This document shows, one piece after another, positions 4,711-60,932 of a DNA stretch of 64,000 nucleotides. The notes beneath the pieces were generated by a model, which made no database searches, was not told the DNA's origin, and saw nothing but the letters and a program-made list of their open reading frames with translations. The stretch spans positions 1 through 64,000 of the IMG/VR virus record IMGVR_UViG_3300047548_000777. One strand, 5' to 3'. The position numbers were made by a program, and so were the translations under genes. Origin of the DNA: a virus. Position 1 is the first letter of the stretch. Every line of letters begins with the position of its first letter.

Positions 4711-4719
4711 ACTAATATT

Positions 4720-21262: not shown

Positions 21263-21282
21263 AATAATCTCCAAACTATTAT

Positions 21283-21311
21283 AGTATAATAGATTTTTAG
21301 AGAGTTGTCAA
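21283..21311 (-). promoter_or_regulatory. Sigma70-type promoter for the dNMP kinase
   Basis: TTGACA (21311-21306), 17-nt spacer, TATACT (21288-21283). Confidence 0.8.
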
Positions 21312-21315
21312 AGAA

Positions 21316-21696: not shown

Positions 21697-21697
21697 A

Positions 21698-23851: not shown

Positions 23852-23856
23852 TCAAA

Positions 23857-24621: not shown

Positions 24622-24636
24622 TTGAATCTCCTGATG

Positions 24637-24654
24637 TATTTATCCTGATAAATA
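24637..24654. promoter_or_regulatory. Back-to-back late promoters for divergent gp13 and gp14
   Basis: TATTTATC-CT-GATAAATA inverted repeat, giving GATAAATA on each strand. Confidence 0.75.
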
Positions 24655-24692
24655 TTGTATCGTGTTCAATAGTACCGCAAGGGAGAATTAAA

Positions 24693-28118: not shown

Positions 28119-28138
28119 CGGGGCAATGCCCCGTTATT
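28114..28138. terminator. Bidirectional terminator between convergent genes
   Basis: AATAACGGGGC-AAT-GCCCCGTTATT. Confidence 0.8.
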
Positions 28139-28142
28139 CTTA

Positions 28143-31100: not shown

Positions 31101-32633
31101 ACTTCCGTCAGTCCAGCTAGCCCCAGAGTCGGTACTATACTGCCATTTAGCAGCACTAGCAGATATACCTGTAACCGTCATAGTTCCATTACTTGTAATT
31201 TTATCAGTTGCAGAACTACCTGTATCTTGTGCAAGTGCAATCGAAGTTAACTGGCTAGGAGCTTGGACAACTGTTACAGTCCTAGTTGCAGTTCCGTCAG
31301 TATTTCCTGCTAAATCTGTTGCAGTAGCAATTATAGTTTTATTTGTTCCATATCCAAGGCTAGTTAAATCAGCTGCTACGACAGTGTAAGTCCATGTAGA
31401 TCCGGATATTGAAGCAGTTTTTATTGTAGCTCCAAATGTTAACTTAACAGTATTGACATTTGCATCTGTTACTGTTCCGGTAATTTGAGTAATTCCTGGG
31501 TCAACGTTATCTACTAAAATGTTATCGCTAGAAATTGTATTGATGGTTATTGTCGGAGAAGTTGTATCTATCTTGATTGTCGAAGTGTTTCCTACCGGAA
31601 TTGATGAATACCCAGATGAGTTTGTTTGCCTGACTTGAATTTTATTAGCTGTGTAAGTGCCTTCTGCCAGTTCAAACGTATTTGTGCTTAGGTCTTTACT
31701 TGTCCAGCTATTTCCGCCATCGATGCTGTACTGCCAAGATCCGCCGGCACCAACATTTATATCAAGAACAAGCACTGTTCCGTTCTTTGTAATTTTATCA
31801 GTAGTTGATGTTCCGGTGTCTTCTGCAAGAGCAAAGGATACGTTGCTTGGTGCAATGCCAACAGTTACTGTTTTAGAAGTAGTTGCGGTATTTCCTGCTC
31901 GATCCGTTCCTGTAGCAGTTATAACCTTATTAGAACCAGCGCCTAATGCTAATAGATCGTCTAATACAACAGTATATGTCCATGAGGTTCCATTAACTAT
32001 TGCATTTCTGGTTACCGTATTAAATTTTAGAGTGACTGCGCTGTCACTTGTTACTACACCAGTAATAGCTGTAACGCCAGGGTCTTCGTTGCTTATTAGA
32101 ACATTATCTACAGAAATAGTATTAATTGTTATCAGAGGCGCTGTACCGTCTACTATAATTTGTGTGGGATTAGTTGCCGGGATTGAAGTAAATCCTACCG
32201 CGTTAGTTTGTCTAACTTGAACTTGTCCAACTGCGTATGTCCCGTTATTTAAAATAAAACTATTCACGTTAGTTGGTAATGGTGTCCATGATGCACCCGA
32301 GTTCGTACTGTACTCCCAATATCCGTTAGTGACATTTATGCCGGATACCACTGTTGCACCATTGCTTGTGATATTATCAGTTGATGACAGTCCTGTATCT
32401 TGTTGCAATGTAAATGATAATTTATCTGGTATTGGGTTGAAAAACGGCAGTTGCTTCCACAAAATCACATCTGTATTAATTTCACTAAACGATGCAAGTT
32501 CTACTTTTTCATTGGTAGTGTTAAATCTTAACATTCCTTCGATTGCAGTAACAGGTCGTTCGTCAGTGATTCCTACCGCAACTTTTAAGTAATCGGTATC
32601 GACTATGGATATTCCGTTAATTTGAAGGGCCAT
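28143..32633 (-). CDS. Fibre/adhesin-like virion protein with about 12 tandem bacterial Ig-like domains and a Gly-rich C-terminal domain
   Basis: Six L..DTG.S..D..T.NG...W.YS...G.SW units alternating with six D.T.P..T.....I.GT...WSY...TAT..D.AGN units. Confidence 0.8.
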   Translation of the reverse strand: MALQINGISIVDTDYLKVAVGITDERPVTAIEGMLRFNTTNEKVELASFSEINTDVILWKQLPFFNPIPDKLSFTLQQDTGLSSTDNITSNGATVVSGINVTNGYWEYSTNSGASWTPLPTNVNSFILNNGTYAVGQVQVRQTNAVGFTSIPATNPTQIIVDGTAPLITINTISVDNVLISNEDPGVTAITGVVTSDSAVTLKFNTVTRNAIVNGTSWTYTVVLDDLLALGAGSNKVITATGTDRAGNTATTSKTVTVGIAPSNVSFALAEDTGTSTTDKITKNGTVLVLDINVGAGGSWQYSIDGGNSWTSKDLSTNTFELAEGTYTANKIQVRQTNSSGYSSIPVGNTSTIKIDTTSPTITINTISSDNILVDNVDPGITQITGTVTDANVNTVKLTFGATIKTASISGSTWTYTVVAADLTSLGYGTNKTIIATATDLAGNTDGTATRTVTVVQAPSQLTSIALAQDTGSSATDKITSNGTMTVTGISASAAKWQYSTDSGASWTDGSTPTAGTSSFVLGEGTYAANQIQARQFSADGNYPSTPIKYASAVTVDTTAPSVTMDVISGDDIITGTTTITGTVESGRTVTLTLKTTTRTATVSGTTWSYALTSTDIGSTVLGTGVNIPITATTSADTAGNIGTVTRYVTNTTVPATLTLALASDTGISTSDRITNNGRMNVSGVVTGGIWRYSIDAGANWSADQASTTTFFTLDEGSYSANNIKVQQFNAQNYPSAITTYASAVVVDKTSPTVTMNIVSGDNILISSEDAGVTSITGTVNDDYIDTVKLTFGTTTKTASITGTSWSYTIVSADLTALGIGTSKVITATATDKAGNTATATQTVTYTSVPAALTLTLASDTGSSASDRITSNGTMTVSGQVTGGYWQYSTNGGSSWSANQAPTTTSFVLSEGTYDSVNVRQFNAQNYPSAVTTYPSTITVDTTAPTITMNIISGDDIIISSQDAGVTSITGTVTSGSTVSVSLNGTVRTATVSGTTWSYLITSADFTAMGAGTGRIITATATDTAGNASSTSRTITVTTVPPKLTLALASDTGSSASDYYTSNGTINVSGITVGSTGSWQYSINGGGSWTTMAYNVTSFTLGEGSYAVNVVQVRQTNAQGYSSDITFAPAITVDKTAPIVTINAVPALTYASLATPTYISGTIESGYTVSLSGPNGAIPISIIGTNWSCLVTEAVLIAIGEGASRTITATTSADQAGNIGTASRTVSVTTWGSIVFTTPGTRTWTLPDPYIPNIHVVCIGGGSGAIGANGIADAAYSGGGGGTGYKKIVPTYGTNYTVVVGAGSAAPYPLTAGSFSSAKAGDSYFGSLTTVAGKGAGGATSGTIASYTPPNSNNPPPYNTVGSVSQPSGSAGTGGGYVGDGGGNGANGVRISTGTTFGSGGNAGSYTGAAAGTTGTGSSLYGSTVAGSGPGSRTTTGNAQVYYIEPDGGAYGAGGSTRIATAQGGDGANGAVRIVWGVGRSFPSTNVNTATNETSG

Positions 32634-32654
32634 ATAATTATTTCCTAACTCACA

Positions 32655-33623
32655 TTAAACAGCAGCAGCATTATTAGGGAAACTCCTGCCTGTTCCCCAT
32701 ATTATGCGCACCACTCCATTTGCACCCGTTCCGGCAGATCCGCCGCCGCCACCGTAAGAACCACCGTTAGAAGTTTGATTAAGCCCGGTTCCGCCGCTGC
32801 CGCCGCCGCCTCGGCGCGATTGACCGTTTAGAACCGGAGATCCGGCTGTTCCGTTTGCACCAACTCCATATATACCTACGCCGCCCCCACCGCCACCGGC
32901 AGTACCACCGGAGCCACCACCACCTCCGCCACCTCCTTGTCCTGCATTACCGGAGAATTGACTAGTACTACCATTAAATCCGGAACCGCCGTCTCCGCCG
33001 GCACCGCCGTATCCTCCGGCACCACCACCCCCTCCTATCAAGGAGCCTCCGGTGCCGCCGTTGCCACCACTACCGTACAAAGATTGGTATGTGCCGCCTA
33101 GTCCGGCGGCACCATTCGTTCCACCTATTCCTCGTTTGCCGCCACCGGCTCGACAAACTTCGGCTCCATCAGGTAATTTAAAATAGCTATCTCCACCGTC
33201 AGTAGCAAACACTGAACCCCCCACTGAGTACTTACAAATTGTTCCCGGAGTTACTGGTATGTCGTTAGCATATGCTAGTGCTCCTCCCCCTCCGCCGGCG
33301 CCGTAACTACCTGCACTAGCACTTCCGCTTCCTCCGGCTCCAATGCATAATATCGAAATTTTAGTGACACCGTCCGGCACCAACCACTCTGTTTCAGAAG
33401 TGGTAGTTGCAGTGAATGTTGCATCTCCGTAGCTTGATACCCCATACCCTATATATTGCCACCCACTGCTGGTATATACTTCTAGATAGCCAATATCGGT
33501 ATTATATCTTGTCATGCCGATTACTGGAGTAGACGGTCTTTGTGCAGTAGTGCCTGCTGGTAAAGACAAATAACTAGTAGGACTATCAATAATAGTTGTT
33601 GTGCCGTTTATTCTTAATGACAT
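32655..33623 (-). CDS. Glycine-rich short fibre protein
   Basis: LPAGTTAQRP...GMTRYNT N-terminal module; W.VPDGVTKISILCIGAGG; poly-Gly runs; start MSLRING after AGGAG. Confidence 0.75.
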   Translation of the reverse strand: MSLRINGTTTIIDSPTSYLSLPAGTTAQRPSTPVIGMTRYNTDIGYLEVYTSSGWQYIGYGVSSYGDATFTATTTSETEWLVPDGVTKISILCIGAGGSGSASAGSYGAGGGGGALAYANDIPVTPGTICKYSVGGSVFATDGGDSYFKLPDGAEVCRAGGGKRGIGGTNGAAGLGGTYQSLYGSGGNGGTGGSLIGGGGGAGGYGGAGGDGGSGFNGSTSQFSGNAGQGGGGGGGGSGGTAGGGGGGVGIYGVGANGTAGSPVLNGQSRRGGGGSGGTGLNQTSNGGSYGGGGGSAGTGANGVVRIIWGTGRSFPNNAAAV

Positions 33624-33639
33624 ATCTGTTTTACTCCTG

Positions 33640-35526
33640 TTAAACAACTTTAGTTGTTAAAGTATCGACATCGTTAGATAGTTCTTTAATTGCTTCGATT
33701 AAAAATCCAATCAAGGACACATAGTTAACGCTCTTTGATCCATTTATCTCATGAACCACTTCAGGTAATACCTTTTCAATTTCTTGCGCGATTACTCCGT
33801 AACCTAAGTGCCCGGTATTCCTCCAATTAAAAGAAACTCCTCGTAATCTTGATAATACATTAACAGAATCTTGAATTGTTTTAATATTTTCTTTTAATCG
33901 TTGATCAGATGCAAAGTTAATGTTGGTTGCGTATAGAGTTTGATTTCCAGAAGTATAATACATGTTAGTGGAATCAACTGCACCTTTATCCCAGGTACCA
34001 GTTGAGGCCGACGACATAGGTAAGTAATAGGTTGTATTTGCGCAAGTTCCTGCTAACGAAATTGCTGCAGTATATTTAACTCCGTTAATGCATAATCCAG
34101 TATCATCAACCCGTAGACGTTCGCATGTTCCAGTTCCCATCAGTACAGTATTGCATAAACCAGCAGCACCTGCCATTGGCCCTATAATAATATTATTTGA
34201 ACCAGTAGTTACTGAACAGCCCGAGAAACAACCAAAGAATGTGTTATTTGATCCGGTAGTATTATTATATCCAGAACAGTACCCTGCAAAGAAATTGTGA
34301 GCTCCGGACGTATTTTTATAACCAGCCAGTCTACCGTAAAAAATATTATGTTCACCAGTAGAATTAGAATAACCATTTTCCTGACCAATAAAGATATTAT
34401 TACTGCCTGCGCCGGTTGCATTGCTCCCACTTGATTGGCCAAAGAATATATTATTACTACCTATATTTTTAAGGCCAGCATTGCATCCGATAAAAATATT
34501 ATGTGTTCCAGTTTCGTTACATGCTCCTGCGGAATAGTTAATAAATGTGTTGTAACAGCCGGTATCATTTTTATATCCTGCTTGATAGCCTATAAAAATG
34601 TTACTCATTCCAGTAGAGTTTGTAAATCCAGATAACCCACCAATAAATACGTTGGCCGAACCAGTAACGTTACATATTCCCGCTGAACCACCAATAAAGG
34701 TATTATTATTACCTACAGAATTTCTAAAACCTGCACAGAATCCAAAAAATGTATTACTTGATCCAGCAGTGTTACAGTAGCCTGCACGGTTTCCAAAAAA
34801 GTTATTATTGGACCCAGTGCTGTTTGTTACACCAGCGCAATATCCAGCAAAGAAGTTACTGGTTCCAGTCCCTCCTTGTCCTGCTTGGCTACTGTATATA
34901 GTTCCACAAACTCCTGCAGATTTTGAAATTTCTCCGCTACTGCCGGTATACCCGCATGACCCTTGGCTTCCGGTGTATCCAACAGATCCAGTATACCCAG
35001 TGTCACCTCGACTACCAACATATCCGGTGTCACCTCGACTGCCGGTATAGCCAACAGATCCAGTATACCCAGTGTCACCTCGACTACCGGCGTATCCGGT
35101 AAATACAGACCCGTTGATGAACAAGCCAGTAGCATCAACTTTTAATCTCTCGGTAGCACCTGCTGCCAGAATAACCGTATTACACAACCCAGCAGATCCA
35201 GCAACACTTCCAATGATGACGTTGTTTGATCCAGTAGTTACCGCACATCCTGCATTGCAACCAAAGAATGTATTATTACTACCTGTAGAGTTAGATCGAC
35301 CGGCACAGAATCCAGCAAAGAAATTATGTTTACCGGTGCCACCGGTGCCTGCTTGGCTACTATATATAGTTCCGCAAACACCACTTAGCTTAAATTCCCC
35401 GTAACCTTCTAAACTAATGTCACCGGTACCTAAAATACTACATCCGCCGATAGTCTTTAAGTTTGTTATGTTTTCTAAGCCTCTACTATCATTGATAACA
35501 GTACAGCTATTAATTTTAATTGCCAT
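33640..35526 (-). CDS. Tail fibre with N.F.G..AG..N..G repeats, a collagen-like segment and a C-terminal intramolecular chaperone (peptidase S74-like)
   Basis: SDQRLKENI...GVIAQEIEKVLPEVV...VNYVSLIGFLIEAIKEL. Confidence 0.82.
   Translation of the reverse strand: MAIKINSCTVINDSRGLENITNLKTIGGCSILGTGDISLEGYGEFKLSGVCGTIYSSQAGTGGTGKHNFFAGFCAGRSNSTGSNNTFFGCNAGCAVTTGSNNVIIGSVAGSAGLCNTVILAAGATERLKVDATGLFINGSVFTGYAGSRGDTGYTGSVGYTGSRGDTGYVGSRGDTGYTGSVGYTGSQGSCGYTGSSGEISKSAGVCGTIYSSQAGQGGTGTSNFFAGYCAGVTNSTGSNNNFFGNRAGYCNTAGSSNTFFGFCAGFRNSVGNNNTFIGGSAGICNVTGSANVFIGGLSGFTNSTGMSNIFIGYQAGYKNDTGCYNTFINYSAGACNETGTHNIFIGCNAGLKNIGSNNIFFGQSSGSNATGAGSNNIFIGQENGYSNSTGEHNIFYGRLAGYKNTSGAHNFFAGYCSGYNNTTGSNNTFFGCFSGCSVTTGSNNIIIGPMAGAAGLCNTVLMGTGTCERLRVDDTGLCINGVKYTAAISLAGTCANTTYYLPMSSASTGTWDKGAVDSTNMYYTSGNQTLYATNINFASDQRLKENIKTIQDSVNVLSRLRGVSFNWRNTGHLGYGVIAQEIEKVLPEVVHEINGSKSVNYVSLIGFLIEAIKELSNDVDTLTTKVV
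34935..35100 (-). repeat. Collagen-like GYTGS(RGDT/V) coding repeat
   Basis: Repeated GTGTCACCTCGACT and AACAGATCCAGTATACCCA on the + strand; G-X-Y periodicity. Confidence 0.85.
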
Positions 35527-43875: not shown

Positions 43876-46800
43876 TTATGCTCTAAATTTAAATGTACTT
43901 ACTCTAGTTGCGTTGACTGAGAAAGGCGTATATACTAGTTCTACATTTGACCCTGAAATTCTACTAGAAAAAACTCCCAGCAGCTGGCTGGTATGCACGA
44001 TGCCATACTCACTGGTGTTAATATCTACCCCATTGTGTACCAACATAATTTCCTGTCCAGATACCTGGTTTGTTACTGTATCCTTAACTCTCACAATATA
44101 CTTTGCTAGATTATGGTCAGCTAGTGCAAACGAATCAATGACCGTTGCATTAGCATTTAAAATCTCTATTTCTGAAGTTGTCGTATTAAATTGATTTGCA
44201 ACCACTTCACTAAACGATGCCTTTGCGGGGGTTGTCTCTCCTATAACAGTTCCATCAATGTTACCACCGGTAATAGCTACCTTAGGACTTACAAGATTTA
44301 CATTCATGGTCCCGATATTACCAGTTACCACATTATTTGTAATTCCTGAACTAGGTATGTAAGTTAACGCATCCAATGATCTAATGTATCCAAAGAATCC
44401 CTGTCGAACTAATAGGACCACAGTAGCATTTGATGTATAAGTTCCTGGTATCGCCGTCGGTGTTATTGAAATATTAAAACTAGTGCTAGTTGGGTCTGCT
44501 GCAGTGACTTTCCATTTTCCATTAAAGATTGTATTCGTCGATCCTGCGATGATAACCGAATCATTAGTAGTTATTTTAGCATTGCTAACAGTCGTATTTA
44601 AATTAACCGATGTAGTATTAGATATACCGTTTGAAGTTAGGACTATACTGTTGATTAGTGCTGCCAAGTTCGTATGATCGTTGTATTTTATACCGTAATC
44701 TACGGAACTAGGTATGCTAATTTGTTCAGGACCAAATCTAACAATAGAGTTTCCAATAATTAATTCATCTTTAACAGTTAAATCGTGTTCTACAGTAACC
44801 ATTCCCGGTTCAATAGTAAAAGCTAACTGCTCTTTAGGATAGAACTCCAGTTTTCCAGTTGCATCGTTGGTTCCAGTTGTGTAAGTTGTAAACTTAGCGC
44901 TAGAAAAATTAGTTGCTGCAATGCTATTAGTTGTGATTCTTAATGTGTTAGTTTCGTTATATCCAATATCTAACGTAGGATGCAAAGTGTAAGTACTATC
45001 AAAAATATTAACATCTTTGTTTAAATTTTTAATATTGGGTTGGGTTTCTGTAACAATGGTTCCGTCGATACTGGTAAAATAACCAGTTTTCCATTTGCTA
45101 GTAGATTTTCCAAAGTCAATACTGTTAGATAGTTCTGGAATAACTGAGGCATTACCGGTTACACCAAACACCAAATCCTGATTTAAAGATTGATTCTTTA
45201 TAAGATTAAGATCAAGTTTGATGTTGTCGACTGTCAATTCAGTCAATGTGCCCACCCGTGTTATCGTAGTCTGAGTTGGATTGGAAACTGTTGCAGCCGA
45301 TCCTGTGGCATTACCGTTTAATGTTCCATAGAAATTCGGAGACGTTACACTGGTTCCTACATTTAATCGTTTTTCAATGCCAACACCACCCTCAACAATC
45401 AATGCACCTGTATCTTTACTTGTGCTTTCAAGAGTCGATGATATAACAACTGCCCCAGTGCCTGTAGTTTTTAATATAATATTGGCATCAGCATCTACGT
45501 TAGATATAGTGTCTGATGTAATATTAATATCACCGATCGTTGCAGATAATGCCGCACCCCCTCCGCCCGCCACAAAGTCAACATACGCTTTTGTTGCGGC
45601 ATCTTGTGCACTAACAGGGGTTGCTAAATTAGAAATGATGGTGTTGGATAAATCAACTACACCAGTTCCGTTGGGATTAATAACAATATCTTGATCAGTC
45701 CCTATGCTTATTAGACTATTTCCAATTATACGTAAACTATCTATAGTAGTAGGACCAGTTACGATACCACCTGCTAAATTTAAATAGTTATTTTCTAAAT
45801 ATTGTACTATTGCTGTCTGCGTAGGAGCTGTATAATCATCTGTAAACCCAGTTGAAGAAATTAAACTAGAGTTGTTGCTAATTTCTTTTAGCTGAACACC
45901 TACTGGAACCCCATTTCTAATCAAAGGACCCAATGCACTTATATTAGATAAGTTAAAGTTACTAGCATCAATGGTGGAAGTTCCAGTTAATTGATTTATT
46001 TCTAGAACATCCCCAATTTTAAAAATTCCCGAATCAGATAAGGTTGAGAAAAATATCTTACCATAATTTGTTTCAGTAATTTCATTTAATGCATTTGGAG
46101 ATCCGCCGTTTTCTGGAAGTGCATGAAGTGTGACACCAGAGCCAACATACTTAAATCCATGTCCATTTGCTGAAATCTTACTACCAAGGTAGAAGTTAAC
46201 CTGGGTTCCTGTTTCTGCAAACAATGGTCTTGGAACTAGTGATATCAAACTATTTGTAACAACCAACGGAGTTGCTGCCGAAATATAATACTTACTAGAA
46301 TCACCCACCAACTCTAACAGCGTGCCTGTAATCGGACGAGAAAGCATGGTCCCTATGTTTAATTGTCCTACACCACTTAATTCCACACTGGTAGTGGCTT
46401 CTGTTGTTGGAGATCCTCCAGTAAGCGTTACGGACGGGACTGTTTTATATCCATAACCAGGTTCAATAATCGTTATTTGTGTCACTATTCCTGCATCTAT
46501 TACAGATGTAGCAGTAGCTTGTGTTCCAATATATTCTAGTGTGGTTGTACCGTCAACTTCAGAGCCAGATGTATGTGCTGGGGGGACCATTCCAGTGGTA
46601 CCAGCAATTATAACTTTATAAAAGTTTCCATTACTAGTTAATGTTTGCTCTATTGTATATACTGTATCCGGTTCCCAAGAGACACCTCCAGCAATCGGAG
46701 GATCAATGGAAACTGATGGCGCTTCACTGTATCCACTTCCACCACCAGTTACATTTATTAACGCGACAAAACTGTACTCGCTCTGGCTTACTATTGCATT

Positions 46801-47769
46801 AGTTTTATAAGGAACCGAAGAAAATCCATTTGCAATGAGTCCATTAATACCGTATTCAGTAGTACACGCAGATGCTTCTATAAATCCGCCCGATTCTGTC
46901 TTTAAAGATTCATAACAAAATTTGGTGACAACACCATTTGCCAGTATATATGCACCGTTTGATGCTGTTAGTCCATATCCGCCCTGGCTCTCAACAACTA
47001 ATCTATCTACAATTACGGTTTTAATTGTTGAATTGCTAGAGAATCTAGAACCGTCGACGTTAACACCACCGCCTGCACCGGCAACATCAATGCGTTTGCT
47101 GACGTTTGGTACATCTGAATTTTTTATTAAAGGGAGTGCGCCCGGTGTGATTGCTGGATTCTGAACTGTCTTTTTAGGAATAAACAGTGTACCGTCAGCT
47201 AAGAAAGGTCCTGTAATTACCGTACAATTTCTTACTATCGGAGATTCTGTAACTACAGCGCCTACTGCAATTGCAAACGCATATCCAGGAGCTCTATGGT
47301 TTTTTATTTTAACATCTTGTACTAAACAAGCATTATTAAGGTGAAAAATATCTAGAGTAGGATTTGCCGGTATAACGGTACAGTCCTGTCCTATTATTGT
47401 TATTTCGTTATCTAATTTTAAAGGATTTAATTCTTTATAAACCCCACTAGAAACTATGATAGCCGTTCCTGGAATGGCTGCTGATAGCGCTGATCTAATC
47501 GTAAGCTTAGATTCAACTATTGAAGATCCGGTATTTTTATCATCACCGCCCTTGCTAACATAAATGACGTTTTTTACAGGCCTAGAAATTAAGTCATCCT
47601 GGCTAATCCATTTTGTGCTGCCATCGAGTCTAGCAATTAGTACACTGTTATCTACACTAGGTTTCCCTAGTGCAGGTTGTGCTTCAGTTAACGAAATAAA
47701 TTCGTACCTAGAAGATTCTAAATCTTCCAAAGGAGTTACTTTTGTTTTTCCACTTAATAAATTAGGCAT
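43876..47769 (-). CDS. Large virion structural protein with an N-terminal beta-helix-like region
   Basis: VIYVSKGGDD..G...SKLTIRSAL...SGVYKE; DAATKAYVD; GGSGY...P.V.I repeats. Confidence 0.72.
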   Translation of the reverse strand: MPNLLSGKTKVTPLEDLESSRYEFISLTEAQPALGKPSVDNSVLIARLDGSTKWISQDDLISRPVKNVIYVSKGGDDKNTGSSIVESKLTIRSALSAAIPGTAIIVSSGVYKELNPLKLDNEITIIGQDCTVIPANPTLDIFHLNNACLVQDVKIKNHRAPGYAFAIAVGAVVTESPIVRNCTVITGPFLADGTLFIPKKTVQNPAITPGALPLIKNSDVPNVSKRIDVAGAGGGVNVDGSRFSSNSTIKTVIVDRLVVESQGGYGLTASNGAYILANGVVTKFCYESLKTESGGFIEASACTTEYGINGLIANGFSSVPYKTNAIVSQSEYSFVALINVTGGGSGYSEAPSVSIDPPIAGGVSWEPDTVYTIEQTLTSNGNFYKVIIAGTTGMVPPAHTSGSEVDGTTTLEYIGTQATATSVIDAGIVTQITIIEPGYGYKTVPSVTLTGGSPTTEATTSVELSGVGQLNIGTMLSRPITGTLLELVGDSSKYYISAATPLVVTNSLISLVPRPLFAETGTQVNFYLGSKISANGHGFKYVGSGVTLHALPENGGSPNALNEITETNYGKIFFSTLSDSGIFKIGDVLEINQLTGTSTIDASNFNLSNISALGPLIRNGVPVGVQLKEISNNSSLISSTGFTDDYTAPTQTAIVQYLENNYLNLAGGIVTGPTTIDSLRIIGNSLISIGTDQDIVINPNGTGVVDLSNTIISNLATPVSAQDAATKAYVDFVAGGGGAALSATIGDINITSDTISNVDADANIILKTTGTGAVVISSTLESTSKDTGALIVEGGVGIEKRLNVGTSVTSPNFYGTLNGNATGSAATVSNPTQTTITRVGTLTELTVDNIKLDLNLIKNQSLNQDLVFGVTGNASVIPELSNSIDFGKSTSKWKTGYFTSIDGTIVTETQPNIKNLNKDVNIFDSTYTLHPTLDIGYNETNTLRITTNSIAATNFSSAKFTTYTTGTNDATGKLEFYPKEQLAFTIEPGMVTVEHDLTVKDELIIGNSIVRFGPEQISIPSSVDYGIKYNDHTNLAALINSIVLTSNGISNTTSVNLNTTVSNAKITTNDSVIIAGSTNTIFNGKWKVTAADPTSTSFNISITPTAIPGTYTSNATVVLLVRQGFFGYIRSLDALTYIPSSGITNNVVTGNIGTMNVNLVSPKVAITGGNIDGTVIGETTPAKASFSEVVANQFNTTTSEIEILNANATVIDSFALADHNLAKYIVRVKDTVTNQVSGQEIMLVHNGVDINTSEYGIVHTSQLLGVFSSRISGSNVELVYTPFSVNATRVSTFKFRA

Positions 47770-50131
47770 TTGCAGTCTCTAGTATACTTAAGGTAATTTT
47801 TAAAGCGCCTGAACGGCTAGCATATGCTATCACGCTGTCAAAGCTTTCTAAAATCATTTTTCCGTTAATTACGGTTGCTGAATCGTTTGGAGGTACAGTG
47901 AATTCTTTTACCAGTTCTGTTAACGTGTCTCCTGCTTGATATCCATTTTGTGTAGACGGGTCAGCGAATACCGGTAGGCGTCGATAGTGTCCGAACGTAA
48001 CTTTTGCTGCGGTATCTGACACGTTGGCTACCTGTGCCATTAGTATAATTGCAGTAATGCCAGGTGGTGCTGTGTAAATTTTGGTAGTATTAGGGGTATT
48101 CAGCGACTTTAGATATGCAACTGCTTCTGCAACTAAGAAATCTCTATTTGCTAATAGCAGATCAAATGCTTTGTTAATTTTAGGATCTGTTGATAGTCCA
48201 GTTAAATCAATCGGTGCTGCAGCGCCAGGTGCTGCACTTGGGCCAGCGCTTATAATACCGGTAATAATATCTATTTTCTGATTAATCTGCGTAAGAATAT
48301 AGCCGTCTGTTGAGTCTATATATGCCGCAGGTAAGTTAGTAACCTGCAGTACTTCGGTTTGTAACGGTGTTGGGAATTTTGTCAAGGAAACAATGCTTGC
48401 AATAACATCTTTTAAGTAGTTATATGCATTTACTGTATCAACTTTTTCAGTAGGAACAAGGCTAATTGTTGCACTGTGATCATAGTAGTACACCCCTGCT
48501 TGAACAGCCTGCCTGTTTCCTCCCCACAAAATATCAAAACGTATACAATCAACAATATATCCTACATCTCTTGAACATAATGAAACATCATAGCTAAAAG
48601 ATCCACGAGTTTGGCTGTCAACAAATGCAACTACTTCAGCAGCTAAGAAGTCTCGATTAGCTAACAGCATTCTATATGCATTTTCTCTATCTCGATCTGC
48701 GGTATAGTTAACATTGATAGCTTCCCTAACACTGGTGTCAGGGCCGTTTTCAATCATGCCAGTAATAATGTCAATTTTAGTTTTAGCAATTTCAGAGTTA
48801 TTTAATGTACCAGGAGGAAGGTTAGTTCTTTGTTTAACTGCTGTTTGATACTTTCCTGCAACTGGGTTGCCCTCTATTACTTCATCTAATATTGATCGTA
48901 AGTAATTGAATGCGGTGACTGCTACAGATCGCTGTGTAGGGAATACGCTGGTAGTTGTAGAAAATCCATAATAGTAGACCCCGGCTTGTATACTCTGACG
49001 ATTTCCGCCGAATAATAGGTCAAAGCTAACACTATCTATAATATACCCGGCATCTCTGAAACATTTTTCTTGATCGTAGGTAAACCCATCCCAAATGCCT
49101 CCGAGACCAGTGTTATCAGAAATTTGTTTAGTAATCCATGCAATGACTTCTTCTTGTATAAAACGCTTATTATTTTGCAATAAAGTGTAAGCGTTAATAA
49201 TACCTTCAATTTGTGATCTCTCTCCGTTAGGAATTACCTGATCTGTAACTGCACTGGTTCCTGCCGTAATAATACCGGTAATAACATCAAATAATCCACC
49301 TACTAGTGTGACACTGGCTAGGTTACCTTCTGCATTATTTCCGATAAATTGCGATTCATCGTTGCCATCTGTTGGAATTACTTCAATATTTCGTATCACA
49401 TTTTGTGCTACGGTTTTTATCCTAGCAATTGCAGCAAGGGTTTGTGCGCTTTGGTCCGGAACTTGTGTCGAACCTTGGCTCCAATATTGTAATCCTGAAA
49501 AGATACTTTGAGTCGAACCATCAGTTAGCAAGTCGAAGGCAATAGAGTCTACTATTAACCGAGTATCTCTTGCGCAATCTGTTTTATTATAACTAAATGT
49601 GTTAAACTGGCTATTTACGTAAGCAATAATTTCTGATTGTAAAAATCCTCTGTTTGCATACAAAATAGCTGCAGAATTTAATAAATCTGTATCTGTAGTT
49701 TGTTCTTTATTCGGTTCAATAAGGTCTGTAACACCTTTAGTTCCGTTTTCGATAATTCTAGATATAAGATCGAATTCTGCTGCAATTTTTGACTGTCCGT
49801 TAACTCCACCTGATGGTAAATCGACTATTTGCGTTTCACCGTTTCCTGGGGATACTGATACAGTCTGGTTAATCACTAGTTGTTTAGCAACTTCTTTTGC
49901 TCGATCCAATGCCGCTAGTGTTTGCAAAGTTTCACCTGGAATTTTACTTGCACCCTGTGCCCAATATTGCAATCCAGAAAATCTCGACTGGGTTGTTCCA
50001 GAATATAAAATGTCGAATGCTATAGAATCTACAATTAGCCCGGTGTCCCTAGCGCAATTTGCAGCGTTATAAGTCGATGTGGTTAACACCGCAGTTTTTG
50101 TTTTAAATGTATTTAATGGTAGTAATGCCAT
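47762..50131 (-). CDS. Virion protein with four helical C-x-R-D repeats inserted into a small beta domain
   Basis: CARD, CARD, CFRD, CSRD repeats; C-terminal IYTAPPGITAIILMAQVAN...KMILE domain. Confidence 0.75.
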   Translation of the reverse strand: MALLPLNTFKTKTAVLTTSTYNAANCARDTGLIVDSIAFDILYSGTTQSRFSGLQYWAQGASKIPGETLQTLAALDRAKEVAKQLVINQTVSVSPGNGETQIVDLPSGGVNGQSKIAAEFDLISRIIENGTKGVTDLIEPNKEQTTDTDLLNSAAILYANRGFLQSEIIAYVNSQFNTFSYNKTDCARDTRLIVDSIAFDLLTDGSTQSIFSGLQYWSQGSTQVPDQSAQTLAAIARIKTVAQNVIRNIEVIPTDGNDESQFIGNNAEGNLASVTLVGGLFDVITGIITAGTSAVTDQVIPNGERSQIEGIINAYTLLQNNKRFIQEEVIAWITKQISDNTGLGGIWDGFTYDQEKCFRDAGYIIDSVSFDLLFGGNRQSIQAGVYYYGFSTTTSVFPTQRSVAVTAFNYLRSILDEVIEGNPVAGKYQTAVKQRTNLPPGTLNNSEIAKTKIDIITGMIENGPDTSVREAINVNYTADRDRENAYRMLLANRDFLAAEVVAFVDSQTRGSFSYDVSLCSRDVGYIVDCIRFDILWGGNRQAVQAGVYYYDHSATISLVPTEKVDTVNAYNYLKDVIASIVSLTKFPTPLQTEVLQVTNLPAAYIDSTDGYILTQINQKIDIITGIISAGPSAAPGAAAPIDLTGLSTDPKINKAFDLLLANRDFLVAEAVAYLKSLNTPNTTKIYTAPPGITAIILMAQVANVSDTAAKVTFGHYRRLPVFADPSTQNGYQAGDTLTELVKEFTVPPNDSATVINGKMILESFDSVIAYASRSGALKITLSILETANA

Positions 50132-50146
50132 GTTGCTAAATCCTCT

Positions 50147-53100
50147 TTATTCAATCGACAGTATAAACGGGGTCATTGTTGCAAACAGACTCTTTTCAAA
50201 GGTTCTTCCAGTTAATGTTCCAGTTGCCTGATTAATAACTAGACCCTCACCGATTCGGAAGTCTCCGTTCTGATCTGTACTTGTGAAGAAAACTTTTCCT
50301 CCGTCTAACATATTTACTTCTCTTTCCTGTTTAGGATCAGCACGGCCTACCATAGGTAATGCCCCGTAGTTAGATCCTGCCCCAACATACTCAAATAAGT
50401 ATCCTGATGCTGTCATGTAACTTCTCTGATAGAAGTTAATAATAGCACCATCCGGGAATAATGAAGTGTTTGTAGTATTATCTTCTAGGTTTATTAAATG
50501 ATAAGTTCCAGATCTAGCATAATAACTTAATCCTGAATAAACTGCGTTGTAGTTTCCACCAAGAGTTAAATCTTCAGCAATTTTACTTGGAATTAATGCA
50601 GAATCTCTTAGGCACTTTTCTTTATTATATGTAAATCCTGGATTTGCAACAACATAATTGTCCATAAACTTACTAATTTCTGCAACAATAAAGTTAATAT
50701 TCAATAATATCAACTCCGATGCGTCAGCATCACTTTGCGTGACGAATCCCTTTTTAACGATGCCTGGAGTCGCACTTTGACCTTGATCAAGTATGTCATA
50801 AACGATTGTTGCCAACAATAATGTCCTAGCTATTGTACCAGTTGTTGGATTGTTTGTTAAATTAAGTGTAACTTGAGGGACCGCAGTCTGTAACGGGGAA
50901 CCATACATTGTATTGGATACAATGGATTGTAGAAGTGTTCTAATGTATTCGATGGTCAATAGTTCTGGAGCTTTCTGATTATTTGGGAACACTAATAACC
51001 CTTCTGCAACCGGATCTGGAGCTTTCTCACTAGATAAAATTGTGTAATACGCTTTTCCTGCTACAAATATTGTGAAATAAGTAGGATTTTCAGGGAAACT
51101 TCCTCCTTTATTTACAGGAGTATTTAAATAGATTGTATCTGGGCCTACATCAGTAATAACTGTATCTTCCAGTAAATATCTTTCTCCGGTAACAGGATCC
51201 GAGTAACTGCCGAATTGATCTCGCACATATACGTGTTGTCCTATATACATGTCATTGACTTCTATCCCTGAAATTGTTAGACTATCTTCTATAATTTCAG
51301 AAGTTGTAATGGTACTGGTGATATATCCTGGTAGGTTTTGCTCGTTGATATAATCATCAGGAGGGATTACTTCCATTACTAATCCAATGTGCGGTCTATT
51401 TGCAGCATCTGGAACAAAAACGCAAACCTGCTGATTTCTCGGGAAATACCCGTCAGGATAGAATTGGTTAAATTCAAATGTTTTTGTTAAACTGTTGTAG
51501 ACTTTATTAGCAGGATTGTAAATTGTGCCGGAGAATTCTTTTGGTCCGTATCCTTTAGAAACCATGCAGTAGTCACCGAAGTTACTGTTCGCGTTAGTAA
51601 TGGACATAATCCCACCGTTATCTACTTGCATAGATATAGAGCAGAACACTGTGAACATCGAAACTAACTGTGTATAACCACGATTAGTTGCTCTAGCTCC
51701 GCGGCCGCCTTGATTTAGCTGTGTAAATGCATCAACAACCATAGACCTTATAGGAGATATATCGCTTACACGATCACCGTCAATAATTAATCCACCCATT
51801 GAGCCATACTTATCGTACTTACGCTGATCCCACTCTGGATAATTATCAAAATCTTTATCTTGCAACGGATAGACCGATGGGTATCCAAAATACAACCTAG
51901 AATTTGTTCCGATACCAACAGTCGGCTTATCTAATCCTATAATGTAAGTATTAGCAACTCCAGCTTTAGGTGTAACTGATGTAACCTTGGTAGATTGTTG
52001 AACGTCATCAGCGCTAACTCCAGTTGCAGCAAATAAAGCAGTTCCTTGATATATTTCTGGAACAGCTGCTTCACCATTTTCGATGATATCAGTTATAATT
52101 TTTGTATTTCTTACTATACTACCAACTGTAATTTCACCTTTTGAATAATACGTGTTTGTTACTTGCTCGCTTGTAAGATCAGGCTTAATATTCTGAACAA
52201 TATTAGTCATTAACCCTTTGGCATAGTTTAATGCATCAATTGTTTGTGTTGCTTCGCCTTCAATTACTAACACATTTGCCGAGTAGTATCCTCTGCCGGC
52301 TTCTGCTGACTTTTTATTTCCACCTAATAATATATCTTGGCTTATCGAGTCTATAATATAACCAAGATCACGTTCACATTTAGCCTTTGTGTCGTACTTT
52401 TCATTTAAAAATCCTAAAGTACTGGTTTGTATACTAGCTAAATTAGTTAAAATTGTAATCTTATCAACATTATTAGCAGTATAGTTAACACCTTTGATGT
52501 AATTAGGCATTGTTATAACTACCGTACCAGACTGTTCGATAATTATGTTAATCTGATCGATAAGAACTTGTAACGTTACTGCCTCATCAAATGTTCCCAC
52601 TGGCAGTTCTAAATATTGTCGTAAATCGTCATTTCCTTGGGTTGGAATAACTGGTATATTTTGTACAACGCTACTAATAACTTGTTTTAAATGCTCGTAG
52701 GCAGCAATTGCTTGTTGTATTTGACCTGGTAAGTAAGTTGTTGTGCCTAAATAGTAAGCATTTGCTACTTCAACAGATTGGCTATTTCCTCCGTATAGTA
52801 AATCATAAACTAACGCATCAATAATATATCCGGTATCTCGCCTACAAAGAGAAATATTATATGTAAATTCTGATGTAAAAGGAGGTGTGTTAGTTGCAAC
52901 TTGTTTATTAATCCATGCTATAACTTCTTCAACTAGGAACGGTTTATTTTTTATAATAATTCTAGATGCATTTATTTTATTTGAAGTACTTATTAACTCT
53001 TCTGATGAGGTACTTAATGGATTTATAAACTCTAAATCAGGTGCTGCAAAATCTGATACTTTATCAATTATGTCAGTTACAGTTTTAAATAACTCATTAA

Positions 53101-55204
53101 TCTTCTTAATTGTATCTGCCTTAGTAACAGGATTAAGCAGTGCAACTGCAGTATCCCTTGCAAAATTTAATCCTGCAATAGTTTTTTGTTTCTGTAAAGT
53201 AGTTACTGTTGAACTGTAGCTTCTTGTATATGCAATTCCTGCATATAAAGATCTATAATTTGTTCCTAAAATTAAATCGTCAAGTACAGAATTTAAAATA
53301 ATTCCTACGTCTCTACTACATTTAGCTTGATCAAATGTTAACAGCCCTGGGTATTTTGTATCTACATAAGAACTAACTTGTTTAATAATAAACTCTCGGT
53401 TATCCTGTATCAGCACTTCCCCGCACACCAATCCGAATTCTGCACCGGTAGAATAATATATCTTTGGTGCGGCACCAGGACCGTTTGTTATTATATTTGT
53501 AATGATGTCAATATTGTTAGATATTGGGATGAGTGCAATCAGCCCATCTGTTAAATTTGGGTTGAATACTTGAGCGTGAACACCTGTTCCAGATAACAAA
53601 TCTGGAGCTGGTAGACTAGGATTATTTTGCAGTATGCTTGTCGCTAAAGTTTTAATGTAATCGAGTGCATCAACAGTAACCGATTCTTCTCCAGGTATTA
53701 AACTAGTAACGCCGTCAAAATATGCAAGTCCAGATTCGACACTTTTACTATTTCCACCAAAGCATGCATCGTATAATACATTTTCAACAATTATACCAAC
53801 ATCCCGACGACATTTTTCTCTAGCATATACAAAGGTAGGATACGTAGTTTCTACATAAGCAAGAACCTGTTCTTGAATAAAAGGCTTATTTGCTAAAAGC
53901 AATGTTCTTGCATCAAAAAATCCAATGTCTTGCGGAGCAGTATTGATGCTCATTCCTGCTAAGGGAACATCACCACGCTTAATTTCAACTTCAATCTCGT
54001 TAAGGCCTTCAGTAAATGTAGTAATTCCAACACTTAATGGTAATTGCACTGTCTGATTTGGAATAAACATGGTGCCATCTTTGAGCCAAGGTCCAGATTG
54101 ATTTGTGCAGTTTTGTATATAGGGAGACTTATAAATCGTTAACTTGCCTGTTTTTAAATTAACATTAGTCTTTGGTACAGTATTCAGAGATTGCTTAGAA
54201 ACAAATATGGTATTACCAACCACCGACCTAACAATCGTATTCTCTGCAAAATCTTCTCCAATAATTTCAATTCCTGGGATAACCTCATCCGAAATACTGA
54301 TAACTTGTATTTCGTTACTCTTTGGCTGAATATTTCCCGTGATTTGAACTGTATTTGTTGGGAACGCTACAGTGTATGCTCCTCGATCAATGTAAGGATC
54401 AATTATACCACTTCGTCCATTTATAAATTGCATCTGTGCAAGGTATGTTGAGCTATCAACATGAAATAAATCTTGAGTTTTGTTAATAGGTTCAACTGTA
54501 GTAGTTCTTAAATCACTACCTATAACACTGGTATATGGTTTTAGTCTAAGTGGATTGTTTTCTAAGTACCTGCCTGGAAATACTTTTATGCTTGTTCCTG
54601 GCCTATACAAAGGACTTCTAATCGCTCCTCCGATAGTTCTACAGGCCCTGGTAGGATCCATACTGCTGCCATCGTTTGTATCATCTCCGTCCATTGTAAC
54701 GTATAACGTATTCGTAACAATAGGAGCAGTTCCGTACGGTATTCCGGTGACAACCAAATCTCCTTCGAAGACTGCCTTTCCTGATACATTTAACTCTTTT
54801 TCGATGTCAACACGACTAAGAATGTCTACTTTCCCAGACCCCCTTGCATCAACGACCACATCTTTGTTGACTGTGTTAGTAATTTTGTTAACAAATAAAT
54901 CATTCCATGCTTGATCCGGAATACCTAAATTGAACGTATCGCTTTGCTTAGGAATTAAATCCGAAGTAAAGTCAGCTGCAACAGAAATAGAATCACCAGG
55001 TGTTGAACCAAAAGTTAACTTTCCATCAATAGTTGTATTACCTGTAACATACAAGTTGTTGTTAACTTTAACTTGTGTTGCTGAATCATCAGAACCTAAG
55101 ACAACGTCTTTAGAATCTAACACAACCTTGCCGTTAGCTTCAACTGCTACACTGTTATCCTTAACATTTTTTTCGTTTATCTGGCTTCTTTTTAAAAACT
55201 TCAT
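50147..55204 (-). CDS. Large virion protein: beta-helix-like scaffold with five helical C-x-R-D repeats
   Basis: LYVTMDGDD..DG...RTIGGA...GRYLENNP; SMVVDAFTQLNQGG; FEYVGAG; FFTSTDQNGDFRIG. Confidence 0.75.
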   Translation of the reverse strand: MKFLKRSQINEKNVKDNSVAVEANGKVVLDSKDVVLGSDDSATQVKVNNNLYVTGNTTIDGKLTFGSTPGDSISVAADFTSDLIPKQSDTFNLGIPDQAWNDLFVNKITNTVNKDVVVDARGSGKVDILSRVDIEKELNVSGKAVFEGDLVVTGIPYGTAPIVTNTLYVTMDGDDTNDGSSMDPTRACRTIGGAIRSPLYRPGTSIKVFPGRYLENNPLRLKPYTSVIGSDLRTTTVEPINKTQDLFHVDSSTYLAQMQFINGRSGIIDPYIDRGAYTVAFPTNTVQITGNIQPKSNEIQVISISDEVIPGIEIIGEDFAENTIVRSVVGNTIFVSKQSLNTVPKTNVNLKTGKLTIYKSPYIQNCTNQSGPWLKDGTMFIPNQTVQLPLSVGITTFTEGLNEIEVEIKRGDVPLAGMSINTAPQDIGFFDARTLLLANKPFIQEQVLAYVETTYPTFVYAREKCRRDVGIIVENVLYDACFGGNSKSVESGLAYFDGVTSLIPGEESVTVDALDYIKTLATSILQNNPSLPAPDLLSGTGVHAQVFNPNLTDGLIALIPISNNIDIITNIITNGPGAAPKIYYSTGAEFGLVCGEVLIQDNREFIIKQVSSYVDTKYPGLLTFDQAKCSRDVGIILNSVLDDLILGTNYRSLYAGIAYTRSYSSTVTTLQKQKTIAGLNFARDTAVALLNPVTKADTIKKINELFKTVTDIIDKVSDFAAPDLEFINPLSTSSEELISTSNKINASRIIIKNKPFLVEEVIAWINKQVATNTPPFTSEFTYNISLCRRDTGYIIDALVYDLLYGGNSQSVEVANAYYLGTTTYLPGQIQQAIAAYEHLKQVISSVVQNIPVIPTQGNDDLRQYLELPVGTFDEAVTLQVLIDQINIIIEQSGTVVITMPNYIKGVNYTANNVDKITILTNLASIQTSTLGFLNEKYDTKAKCERDLGYIIDSISQDILLGGNKKSAEAGRGYYSANVLVIEGEATQTIDALNYAKGLMTNIVQNIKPDLTSEQVTNTYYSKGEITVGSIVRNTKIITDIIENGEAAVPEIYQGTALFAATGVSADDVQQSTKVTSVTPKAGVANTYIIGLDKPTVGIGTNSRLYFGYPSVYPLQDKDFDNYPEWDQRKYDKYGSMGGLIIDGDRVSDISPIRSMVVDAFTQLNQGGRGARATNRGYTQLVSMFTVFCSISMQVDNGGIMSITNANSNFGDYCMVSKGYGPKEFSGTIYNPANKVYNSLTKTFEFNQFYPDGYFPRNQQVCVFVPDAANRPHIGLVMEVIPPDDYINEQNLPGYITSTITTSEIIEDSLTISGIEVNDMYIGQHVYVRDQFGSYSDPVTGERYLLEDTVITDVGPDTIYLNTPVNKGGSFPENPTYFTIFVAGKAYYTILSSEKAPDPVAEGLLVFPNNQKAPELLTIEYIRTLLQSIVSNTMYGSPLQTAVPQVTLNLTNNPTTGTIARTLLLATIVYDILDQGQSATPGIVKKGFVTQSDADASELILLNINFIVAEISKFMDNYVVANPGFTYNKEKCLRDSALIPSKIAEDLTLGGNYNAVYSGLSYYARSGTYHLINLEDNTTNTSLFPDGAIINFYQRSYMTASGYLFEYVGAGSNYGALPMVGRADPKQEREVNMLDGGKVFFTSTDQNGDFRIGEGLVINQATGTLTGRTFEKSLFATMTPFILSIE

Positions 55205-59756: not shown

Positions 59757-60932
59757 TTAAGAGAACTTAACAGCACCAGAAGCAATAGCAACCTTACCTA
59801 AGTAATCTGCAGCGTTACCTAGAGAGCTAGCAGTATTACTCAATTCCACGTAGCCATATCTCGTCATAAAGCTTACGACTGGTTCGAATGTAGACGGATC
59901 TAGAACAACACCAGAGCTCATTAGAGGAACATATGGGCAATAGAATGCAGCAGCGTCTGCTTCGCTGGAACCCTTATATCCAACTAGGATATCAGCGTTA
60001 TCAGCAGCATATGTGTTAACATAGATCTTCATTGCGTTGTTTAGTGTACCAACGAACTTGGTGTTTGTTGGAGCTTCAAAAGTACCTTCTGTAGTACGAG
60101 CAAATGCACTAGTAGTAGCAGATTGTAGAATTGTTAAAGCTAGTGGGCTAACAACTGCCCAGTTACCTGCGCCACGACGTGTACGCTGAGCGATTAAGTT
60201 AGCAACACGGTTGATCTGAACAGCTAAAGCAGCGTGCTCGTCACCAACGAAAGTAGCAGTACCGCTAACAGCAGACTGGTCATAAGTCTGTAGAGCAGCA
60301 CCTGCTAGGTTGTTTAAAGAACCTAGAACTTCTTGATCGATTTCAGCAGTAATTTCTTGTGCTAGAGCAGCCATGATTTCTGCTTCGATATCGATACCTT
60401 GTTGAGCTTGTGCATCTTGTGCAGCTTCGAAAGTCCAACGTGCGCTTAGTTTGCGTGTCTTGGCTTCGACGGTCTGCTTTAAGATTTGAATGCTCATTCT
60501 GTTACCAGCAGTACCTTCTAACGCAGCAGTATTAGCAGCCTTAGCAGCATTTGCATTTTGGTTACCAGAATAAGCTTCAGCAATCTTGAATGGGCTGAAT
60601 GCTTCTTCACCAGCTACAACGCCAGCGCCAGTGCTTGTATCACTGTAGCGAACACGTAGAGTATGAATTTGGCCAACTGGACCAGTTAGAGGCTGAACAC
60701 CAACTAGTTCGTTAGCAATAACGGTTGGCATAACGCGACGAATAACCGGTAGAATAACACGGTTTAGTGTTGCAACGTTACCAGCAGAAGTAGCGCCAGC
60801 TGTAGCACTTTCTGCAAGATACTTGCGTGTATTTTCTAATGTTACAGCCATTGTGGATTTACGGGTGCCGCGTAGGCCTTCTAATAGGGCTTCCTTGGTC
60901 TCGTTCCAACGGCCAGTGAGTAGTTCTGACAT
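59757..60932 (-). CDS. Major capsid protein (gp23-like)
   Basis: VGVQPLTGPVGQI, VEAKTRKL.A.WT.EAAQD, EITAEIDQE, FYCPYVPL, TFEPVVSFMTRYG; strong codon bias. Confidence 0.97.
   Translation of the reverse strand: MSELLTGRWNETKEALLEGLRGTRKSTMAVTLENTRKYLAESATAGATSAGNVATLNRVILPVIRRVMPTVIANELVGVQPLTGPVGQIHTLRVRYSDTSTGAGVVAGEEAFSPFKIAEAYSGNQNANAAKAANTAALEGTAGNRMSIQILKQTVEAKTRKLSARWTFEAAQDAQAQQGIDIEAEIMAALAQEITAEIDQEVLGSLNNLAGAALQTYDQSAVSGTATFVGDEHAALAVQINRVANLIAQRTRRGAGNWAVVSPLALTILQSATTSAFARTTEGTFEAPTNTKFVGTLNNAMKIYVNTYAADNADILVGYKGSSEADAAAFYCPYVPLMSSGVVLDPSTFEPVVSFMTRYGYVELSNTASSLGNAADYLGKVAIASGAVKFS

Follow-up and report, generated by a model that had tools for sequence, protein, structure and literature searches.

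Phycobiliprotein-like domains in tail-fibre proteins of a jumbo phage and of cyanophages as possible acceptors of phage-made bilins

Introduction

Two adjoining genes in the viral record IMGVR_UViG_3300047548_000777 encode large fibre-type proteins, here designated P0001 and P0002, that carry nine repeats with the C-x-R-D motif of covalent bilin attachment. The locus raises the question of what such a site would be doing in a phage structural protein. The window analysed is a stretch of 64,000 nucleotides, positions 1 to 64,000 of the record, and the record itself is a 77.6-kb IMG/VR contig estimated to represent 21% of its genome. Phage genes for bilin synthesis and attachment (ho1, pebS, pcyA, pcyX and cpeT) have been known for about twenty years, and their purpose is unresolved, most puzzlingly where the phage infects Prochlorococcus or a non-cyanobacterial host (PMC3037559, PMC11480375, PMC2984593). 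A 2024 paper still asked what the role of the phage heme oxygenase and reductase cassettes is, and speculated on phytochromes or BBAGs as an answer (PMC11480375). An earlier note, made from the letters of the window, had suggested that the repeats are globin- or phycobiliprotein-fold domains displayed on the virion, and the present analysis follows up that suggestion.

Results

Nine C-x-R-D repeats in two adjoining genes

A motif scan of P0001, P0002 and the neighbouring large protein P0003 found exactly nine C.RD motifs, five in P0001 and four in P0002, at the codons at which the earlier note had placed them; none was found in P0003. The motif cysteines are residues 465, 629, 787, 943 and 1531 of P0001 and residues 26, 186, 357 and 519 of P0002, and they make up nine of the 17 cysteines of the two proteins together. 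When the nine units of about 165 amino acids were aligned, the C, R and D proved invariant, as had been claimed, and so did I(+7), D(+14) and Y(+30), at a pairwise identity of 19-38%. Repeat boundaries were taken from the repeat profile (A2) run on both proteins, and the expectation values (E) given for the repeats below are those of this profile. The features are as follows.

50147..55204, minus strand: P0001 gene, 1685 amino acids, fibre/baseplate-type protein (open reading frame, ORF, and translation)
53468..54001, minus strand: repeat 1, Cys465, codon 53810-53812 (E 7e-54 and motif)
53105..53515, minus strand: repeat 2, Cys629, codon 53318-53320 (E 2e-37 and motif)
52520..53089, minus strand: repeat 3, Cys787, codon 52844-52846, the unit used for the structure model (E 1.5e-48)
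52061..52549, minus strand: repeat 4, Cys943, codon 52376-52378 (E 1.3e-40 and motif)
50771..50980, minus strand: isolated C-terminal third, profile positions 109-176, directly before repeat 5 (E 1e-5)
50462..50809, minus strand: repeat 5, Cys1531, codon 50612-50614, profile positions 3-117 only (E 3e-33 and motif)
47762..50131, minus strand: P0002 gene, 789 amino acids (ORF and translation)
49730..50083, minus strand: repeat 6, Cys26 of P0002, codon 50054-50056, profile positions 58-177 only, the first two helices being absent (E 6.6e-41 and motif)
49247..49774, minus strand: repeat 7, Cys186 of P0002, codon 49574-49576 (E 1.9e-58)
48734..49291, minus strand: repeat 8, Cys357 of P0002, codon 49061-49063 (E 1.3e-64)
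48230..48775, minus strand: repeat 9, Cys519 of P0002, codon 48575-48577 (E 6.3e-60)
48095..48274, minus strand: orphan N-terminal third at the end of the P0002 array, profile positions 2-57, the first two helices (E 6.4e-9)

The repeats belong to the phycobiliprotein family

Both proteins scored above the gathering cut-off of 22.2 bits for the Pfam phycobiliprotein family PF00502 (25.9 bits for P0001 and 25.7 bits for P0002), the whole-protein score being a sum over the repeats. When a profile of the nine repeats was compared with all PDB sequences, phycobiliproteins accounted for 33 of the 34 matches, and a 47-repeat profile returned phycobiliproteins or smURFP in 23 of 25 matches (best E 0.003). 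The profile alignments set the motif cysteine on Cys84 of phycocyanin alpha (CpcA), and the C, R and D of the repeats align with Cys84, Arg86 and Asp87, the likeness that the earlier note had drawn. In both the repeats and phycocyanin alpha a G-Y comes next and a G-G stands 18-19 residues farther on, with the same spacing. Repeat 8 was also aligned by phmmer to smURFP, a derivative of allophycocyanin alpha, across the C-x-R-D motif.

The fold of a single unit agreed with these assignments. Repeat 3, modelled with AlphaFold2 from the 47-repeat alignment, formed six helices after an unstructured stretch of 26 residues, with a predicted local distance difference test score of 84.7 and a predicted template-modelling (TM) score of 0.82. 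A Foldseek search of the PDB with this model ranked phycobiliproteins in all of the top 47 places (probability 1.00, TM-score 0.55-0.63, about 150-160 aligned columns). In a VIA alignment against 48,161 representative chains, the top eight were all of the phycobiliprotein family (Z 12.2-14.7) and included an allophycocyanin-type chain at 21% identity and the bilin-binding domain of ApcE (Z 13.7, root-mean-square deviation 2.2 over 118 residues); further ApcE chains matched were 7eyd_19, 7sc7_BD and 9wg7_N2. Sensor globins and photocobilin followed at Z 10-12, in a method whose notes state that helical folds give high background Z-scores. The structural alignments begin at about residue 21 of the phycobiliprotein, and in the repeats nothing aligns with the extreme N-terminus of phycobiliproteins (helix X, about the first 20 residues).

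Could an unrelated helical repeat have come to resemble phycobiliproteins through a chance C-x-R-D? The marginal E-values against individual phycobiliproteins (0.003-0.3), the failure of single repeats to reach the Pfam cut-off and the helical background of the VIA scores would all be expected from convergence of this kind. It accords poorly with matches that were nearly exclusive to phycobiliproteins in four independent searches, with a structural alignment that spans the whole domain (about 150 of 160-185 residues), with a motif at the equivalent helix start followed by the same spacing, and with whole-protein scores above a curated cut-off for both proteins. We regard convergence as very improbable and, with high confidence, place the repeats by homology in the phycobiliprotein/bilin-binding-globin family, within its CXRD-bearing clade.

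The repeats thus share with phycobiliproteins a globin-like fold of about 160 residues, the C-x-R-D at the start of the equivalent helix and the G-Y and G-G spacing, and phycobiliproteins are their best-ranked matches by both sequence profile and fold. They differ in that phycobiliproteins are free subunits, whereas the repeats stand in tandem, 4 to 37 domains at a time, within giant structural proteins encoded by phages, some of them psbA-less. Identity to phycobiliproteins is only 14-21%, and the repeats carry two further invariant residues, Asp(+14) and Tyr(+30). Sequence and model give no sign that they assemble into rings, transfer energy or hold a chromophore.

The motif residues are retained and lost together

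Of 1.84 billion proteins, the repeat profile matched 1475 representatives at E<=1e-3, of which 630 reached E<=1e-30, and a single protein could hold as many as 37 units; a family of this size lies far beyond chance. Motif statistics were compiled from the best 150 proteins, a diverse set of about 1570 repeats. In these the C was conserved at 95%, the R at 95%, the D at 98%, D(+14) at 99% and Y(+30) at 98%, and the motif cysteine supplied 1462 of the 2783 cysteines present. The three retained residues are those that bind the bilin in phycobiliproteins, namely the thioether cysteine, the propionate-binding arginine and the pyrrole-binding aspartate.

Coupling between positions was assessed in 1519 units in which all sites were aligned, units that are not phylogenetically independent. 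The motif aspartate was lost in none of the 1456 units that kept the cysteine and in 21 of the 63 that lacked it. The arginine (odds ratio 46), Tyr(+30) (242) and Thr(+45) (8.4) were coupled to the cysteine likewise. D(+14), the GGN turn and Tyr(-5), though equally conserved, were kept with or without it, and the uncoupled behaviour of these control positions argues against a simple effect of general divergence. Judged from this pattern of substitution, Cys, Arg, Asp, Tyr(+30) and Thr(+45) appear to constitute one site that decays as a unit, apart from the structural residues of the fold, as a ligand site would.

These data bear on two further explanations of the repeats. The first holds that a captured phycobiliprotein-fold domain serves, free of chromophore, only as a compact helical bead making fibres longer or stiffer, and that folding, inter-domain packing or assembly is what keeps C, R, D and Y in place. 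The joint decay of C, R, D, Y(+30) and T(+45) while equally conserved structural positions persist is the signature of a binding site and speaks against such a bead. So does the lone cysteine, which has no conserved partner and no obvious structural role, yet is 95% conserved and amounts to more than half of all cysteines. A conserved intradomain disulfide was considered and ruled out, each repeat normally having one cysteine.

The second explanation keeps fold and site and changes the chemistry: the ligand would be heme, another host tetrapyrrole, a metal or a receptor sugar, or the cysteine would act as a redox sensor or fibre cross-link. The fold does resemble heme-binding sensor globins and the non-heme globin sensors RsbR and pXO2-61 (Z 10-12), the site includes residues that phycobiliproteins lack, and in one subgroup serine replaces the cysteine while R and D are kept. 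Phycobiliproteins nevertheless outrank all other globins by sequence and by fold, and the motif, its spacing and the G-Y and G-G that follow fit a bilin site. No equivalent of a proximal histidine is evident among the conserved columns, and the co-occurrence described below is specifically with bilin genes. Another ligand or a redox role is, in our judgement, quite improbable.

The serine-bearing subgroup (P0046, P0053, P0057, P0063 and P0087) has the motif S-[YF]-R-D; such repeats could hold a bilin non-covalently, provided that the site is a bilin site. A search for stand-alone short forms of the domain found only four proteins, probably fragments, and no cellular single-domain bridge to the BBAGs.

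Fibre scaffold, array layout and phage lineage

P0001 and P0002 match PHROG families of tail-fibre and virion structural proteins at E 1e-57 to 1e-67 (5342, 17885 and 4527 for P0001). Their genes are situated between that of the major capsid protein (59757-60932) and genes for baseplate-wedge-like, fibre-like and tail-sheath proteins. By homology and by their location in the structural module, the two are assigned as phage tail-fibre/baseplate structural proteins. On the minus strand P0001 and the adjoining P0002 are followed by the third large gene.

43876..47769, minus strand: P0003 gene, 1297 amino acids, a paralogous fibre protein, C-x-R-D domains absent

P0001 and P0003 have a common scaffold of four collinear blocks by BLASTP, with P0001 residues 163-389, 1109-1219 and 1582-1681 pairing with P0003 residues 65-205, 209-316 and 516-617. 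The flanks of P0001 residues ~390-1108, which hold four repeats, match P0003 residues 205 and 209, and this segment is therefore read as a loop insertion in the fibre scaffold; P0003 displays the scaffold form that lacks it. P0001 thus consists of the common scaffold, an insertion of ~720 amino acids that holds four of its phycobiliprotein-like domains, and, close to the C-terminus, the fifth domain in permuted form. P0002 has four such domains, three of them complete and one truncated at the N-terminus, together with an orphan N-terminal third and a C-terminal domain of ~110 amino acids (phrog_1276). The comparison indicates that the arrays are inserted as loops into predicted beta-helix-type tail-fibre or baseplate proteins. 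In P0003, residues 365-392 gave a weak match, under the cut-off, to carbohydrate-binding module family 5/12 (E 0.015).

Repeat 5 is circularly permuted, since profile positions 109-176 precede positions 3-117, and the P0002 array opens with a unit that lacks positions 1-57 and closes with an orphan copy of positions 2-57. We infer that the two ends of an array would come together in space. Split units like these recur in the complete T4-like genomes G020 and G021. In relatives (L005-L007) the array is longer, with 11-19 units in one ORF of 2463-3849 amino acids; here it is split over two genes, 4+5. Variation in copy number among relatives, with up to 37 copies in a protein, is as expected of spacer domains, and the placing of the arrays as insertions in fibre scaffolds also suits a structural bead. 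A third weak PF00502 match, at 66215-66391 of the record and outside the window, was dropped, as the repeat profile gave it no support. A megablast search of the locus against phage genomes gave no match.

In its capsid protein the phage shares 69-72% identity with PA5oct, Phosso, Vibrio 2.275.O and Serratia BF, and on this ground it is classed, from its sequence, as a jumbo myovirus of the PA5oct-like lineage and not a typical T4-like cyanophage. An ordinary T4-like cyanophage had first been assumed and was ruled out by the capsid search and by the lack of psbA in relatives.

Repeats and bilin cassettes in the same genomes

Similarity to P0002 alone retrieved nine viral contigs, three of them large: G001 (327 kb), G002 (328 kb, 92% complete) and G003 (190 kb, complete). 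Each of the three has a heme oxygenase gene beside an Fe_bilin_red gene, and psbA, CpeT and CpeS were found in none of them. The capsid proteins of G001 and G002 are 81-82% identical to that of the source phage, and that of G003, from a distant T4-like lineage, is 38% identical. A reverse search starting from the reductase gave three of three complete psbA-less genomes (G003, G020 and G021) with 3-11 repeat matches and a heme oxygenase. In these five genomes (G001, G002, G003, G020 and G021) repeats and bilin cassette lie within one genome and not in one cluster; in G002, positions place the cassette ~145 kb from the capsid gene.

Repeats and heme oxygenase are both absent from four cultured phages related by capsid, namely Phosso, PA5oct, Vibrio 2.275.O and Serratia BF. 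A control set of T4-like relatives based on gp32 consisted almost only of short contigs and included no complete genome. The association of the repeats with phages that have a bilin supply is suggestive.

The surroundings of the G002 cassette (159000-169000, ORFs 3641-7166) comprise Hsp20 and ClpS upstream, the curli secretion proteins CsgF and CsgG downstream, and a FecR-domain protein farther on. CsgG and CsgF are unusual in a phage, and their presence hints at a Gram-negative host.

Repeats and CpeT in cyanophages

A tblastn search with P0002 against 50,697 phage records matched 305 records, all from cyanophages, and structural matches in BFVD were to cyanophage or uncultured-phage proteins. 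Giant fibre and structural proteins of cyanomyoviruses (S-PM2 p091; T4-like gene clusters 830 and 734; PHROGs 5342, 4527, 701 and 3442) belong to the same repeat family and share PHROG and BFVD matches with P0001 and P0002. They are annotated merely as tail fibre, short tail fibre or structural protein. The source phage differs from them in its PA5oct-like jumbo lineage and in its array being split over two genes. Searches of the available literature returned no report of phycobiliprotein-like domains in phage structural proteins.

Seventeen sequenced cyanomyoviruses were scanned for repeats by profile and for CpeT and Fe_bilin_red by the Pfam models. Repeats and CpeT occurred together in 12, repeats only in two, neither in three (P-SSM2, S-SM2 and S-SSM7) and CpeT only in none, which gives a one-sided Fisher p = 91/6188 = 0.015 with phylogeny ignored. 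The number of repeat-profile matches was nine in S-PM2, 12 in S-RSM4, seven in Syn1 and four each in P-HM1 and P-HM2, and zero in P-SSM2 and P-SSP7. In S-PM2, Syn1 and S-RSM4 a full-length cpeT lies 0.7-1.4 kb upstream of the giant repeat-bearing 'short tail fiber' gene, which is followed by gp12; this neighbourhood could be inherited synteny.

Two side observations concern the same region. In S-PM2 (160000-178000) and Syn1 (17500-34000), cpeT is separated from the giant fibre gene with the repeats by a gene for a 2-oxoglutarate-Fe(II) oxygenase (T4-like gene cluster 104), an enzyme that might modify the fibre protein. In the RefSeq record of S-PM2 (NC_006820, 165928-177267), 16 tRNA features under a single locus tag fall within the coding region of the giant fibre gene, which suggests an error of coordinates or annotation there.

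Discussion

The sequence and gene-content data suggest that these domains may be an acceptor of phage-made bilins. That the motif is conserved, that its site residues are lost jointly and that the repeats occur alongside bilin genes and CpeT all support bilin carriage by the fibre-borne domains in vivo, which we hold, with moderate confidence, to be the best-supported mechanism. Each domain would carry a bilin covalently on its motif cysteine. The bilin would come from a phage cassette of heme oxygenase and ferredoxin-dependent bilin reductase lying outside the 77.6-kb fragment, as in the closest relatives, or, in cyanophages, alternatively from the host. Attachment would be autocatalytic or, where the gene is present, aided by phage CpeT.

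Precedents for parts of this mechanism exist. CXRD is the motif of a covalent-bilin clade formed by the phycobiliproteins together with BBAG-1 and BBAG-3 (bilin biosynthesis-associated globins), and these two BBAGs need no lyase for bilin attachment (Rockwell, Martin and Lagarias 2023; PMC10151467). Compared by description, BBAG-1/3 are, like the repeats, CXRD-bearing relatives of phycobiliproteins outside photosynthesis. BBAG-1/3 are associated in the genome with heme oxygenase and bilin reductase genes, which accompany the repeats in the five genomes named above but not in the 77.6-kb record. Their lyase-free attachment is the behaviour needed in the cassette-bearing relatives, which lack CpeS and CpeT. 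The BBAGs, however, are single-domain cellular proteins clustered with the enzymes, whereas the repeats lie in virion-type proteins, ~145 kb from the cassette in G002. A second parallel is ApcE, in which a phycobiliprotein-type domain is likewise part of a large multidomain protein. ApcE attaches its own bilin autocatalytically. It has one such domain, with the attachment cysteine elsewhere, and is part of a cellular antenna, whereas the phage fibres have tandem arrays.

Several observations weigh against bilin carriage. We know of no report of coloured or fluorescent virions, nor has a chromophore been observed. Against PF00502 a single repeat reaches only 13-15 bits, below the cut-off, and D(+14) and Tyr(+30), nearly invariant in the repeats, are foreign to phycobiliprotein signatures. 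Genes for heme oxygenase, bilin reductase, CpeT and CpeS are all missing from the 77.6-kb record, so that the earlier statement that no lyase or reductase gene is visible in the window extends to the entire record (~21% of the genome); from the ~145 kb that separate cassette and capsid gene in G002, the absence of the cassette from this fragment is expected. Three capsid relatives, 49-60% complete, have repeats, with reductase and heme oxygenase absent from the recovered part. The capsid-relative contigs as a whole are 12-60% complete and for that reason say little on bilin genes. The co-occurrence samples are small and partly selected, with phylogeny ignored.

The enzymes pose difficulties of their own. 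In the cassette-bearing relatives attachment would have to be autocatalytic, because the CpeS and CpeT lyases are absent there. Among the cyanomyoviruses, S-ShM2 and P-SSM7 have repeats with no CpeT above threshold, and P-SSM2 and S-SSM7 have a bilin reductase without repeats. The reductase therefore does not track the repeats and has other uses in cyanophages. T-type lyases, moreover, are known for Cys153 of beta subunits, not for Cys84 (PMC10452541).

Part of this evidence would equally suit fibre beads that bind nothing: the lack of bilin genes in the source record and in the three half-complete capsid relatives, the extra invariant residues foreign to phycobiliproteins, and the fact that no pigmented virion has been reported. 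Besides the behaviour of the site, the restriction of the family to phages with a bilin supply counts against beads of this kind. We consider them possible, if rather doubtful, as an explanation of the arrays.

What a bilin would do on a fibre is more speculative than its attachment. A pigmented fibre might act as a light sensor gating adsorption, or as a photoprotective or stabilising element. Liu et al. reported adsorption in darkness for P-SSM2 (less efficient) and P-SSP7 but none for P-HM1 and P-HM2, and also that the light-dependent adsorption of S-PM2 is independent of host photosynthesis, with light-sensitive receptors or tail fibres as a possible cause (PMC6628666). Repeats are present in the light-requiring P-HM1, P-HM2 and S-PM2 and absent from the dark-adsorbing P-SSM2 and P-SSP7. 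With at most four independent cases, this pattern is a lead and not evidence. A light-sensing role of the domains seems unlikely at present. We place similarly low confidence in the fuller proposal that the phage particle is pigmented, that its fibre domains are a virion photoreceptor gating adsorption by light, and that phage heme oxygenase, bilin reductase (PcyX/PebS/PcyA) and CpeT at least partly serve the virion and not the host antenna.

A phage-encoded acceptor with the canonical attachment motif, in a virion-type protein, offers a concrete and cheap test of why phages make bilins. It also bears on the proposal that phycobiliproteins originated outside cyanobacteria (PMC10151467), and small, possibly self-attaching bilin-binding domains could serve as fluorescent tags. 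For the light-dependent adsorption of cyanophages, so far ascribed to unknown light-sensitive receptors or tail fibres (PMC6628666), the repeats provide a candidate mechanism. If true, a pigmented virion would explain both the making of bilins by phages whose hosts lack phycobilisomes and the need of S-PM2 and P-HM1/2 for light in adsorption, independently of host photosynthesis.

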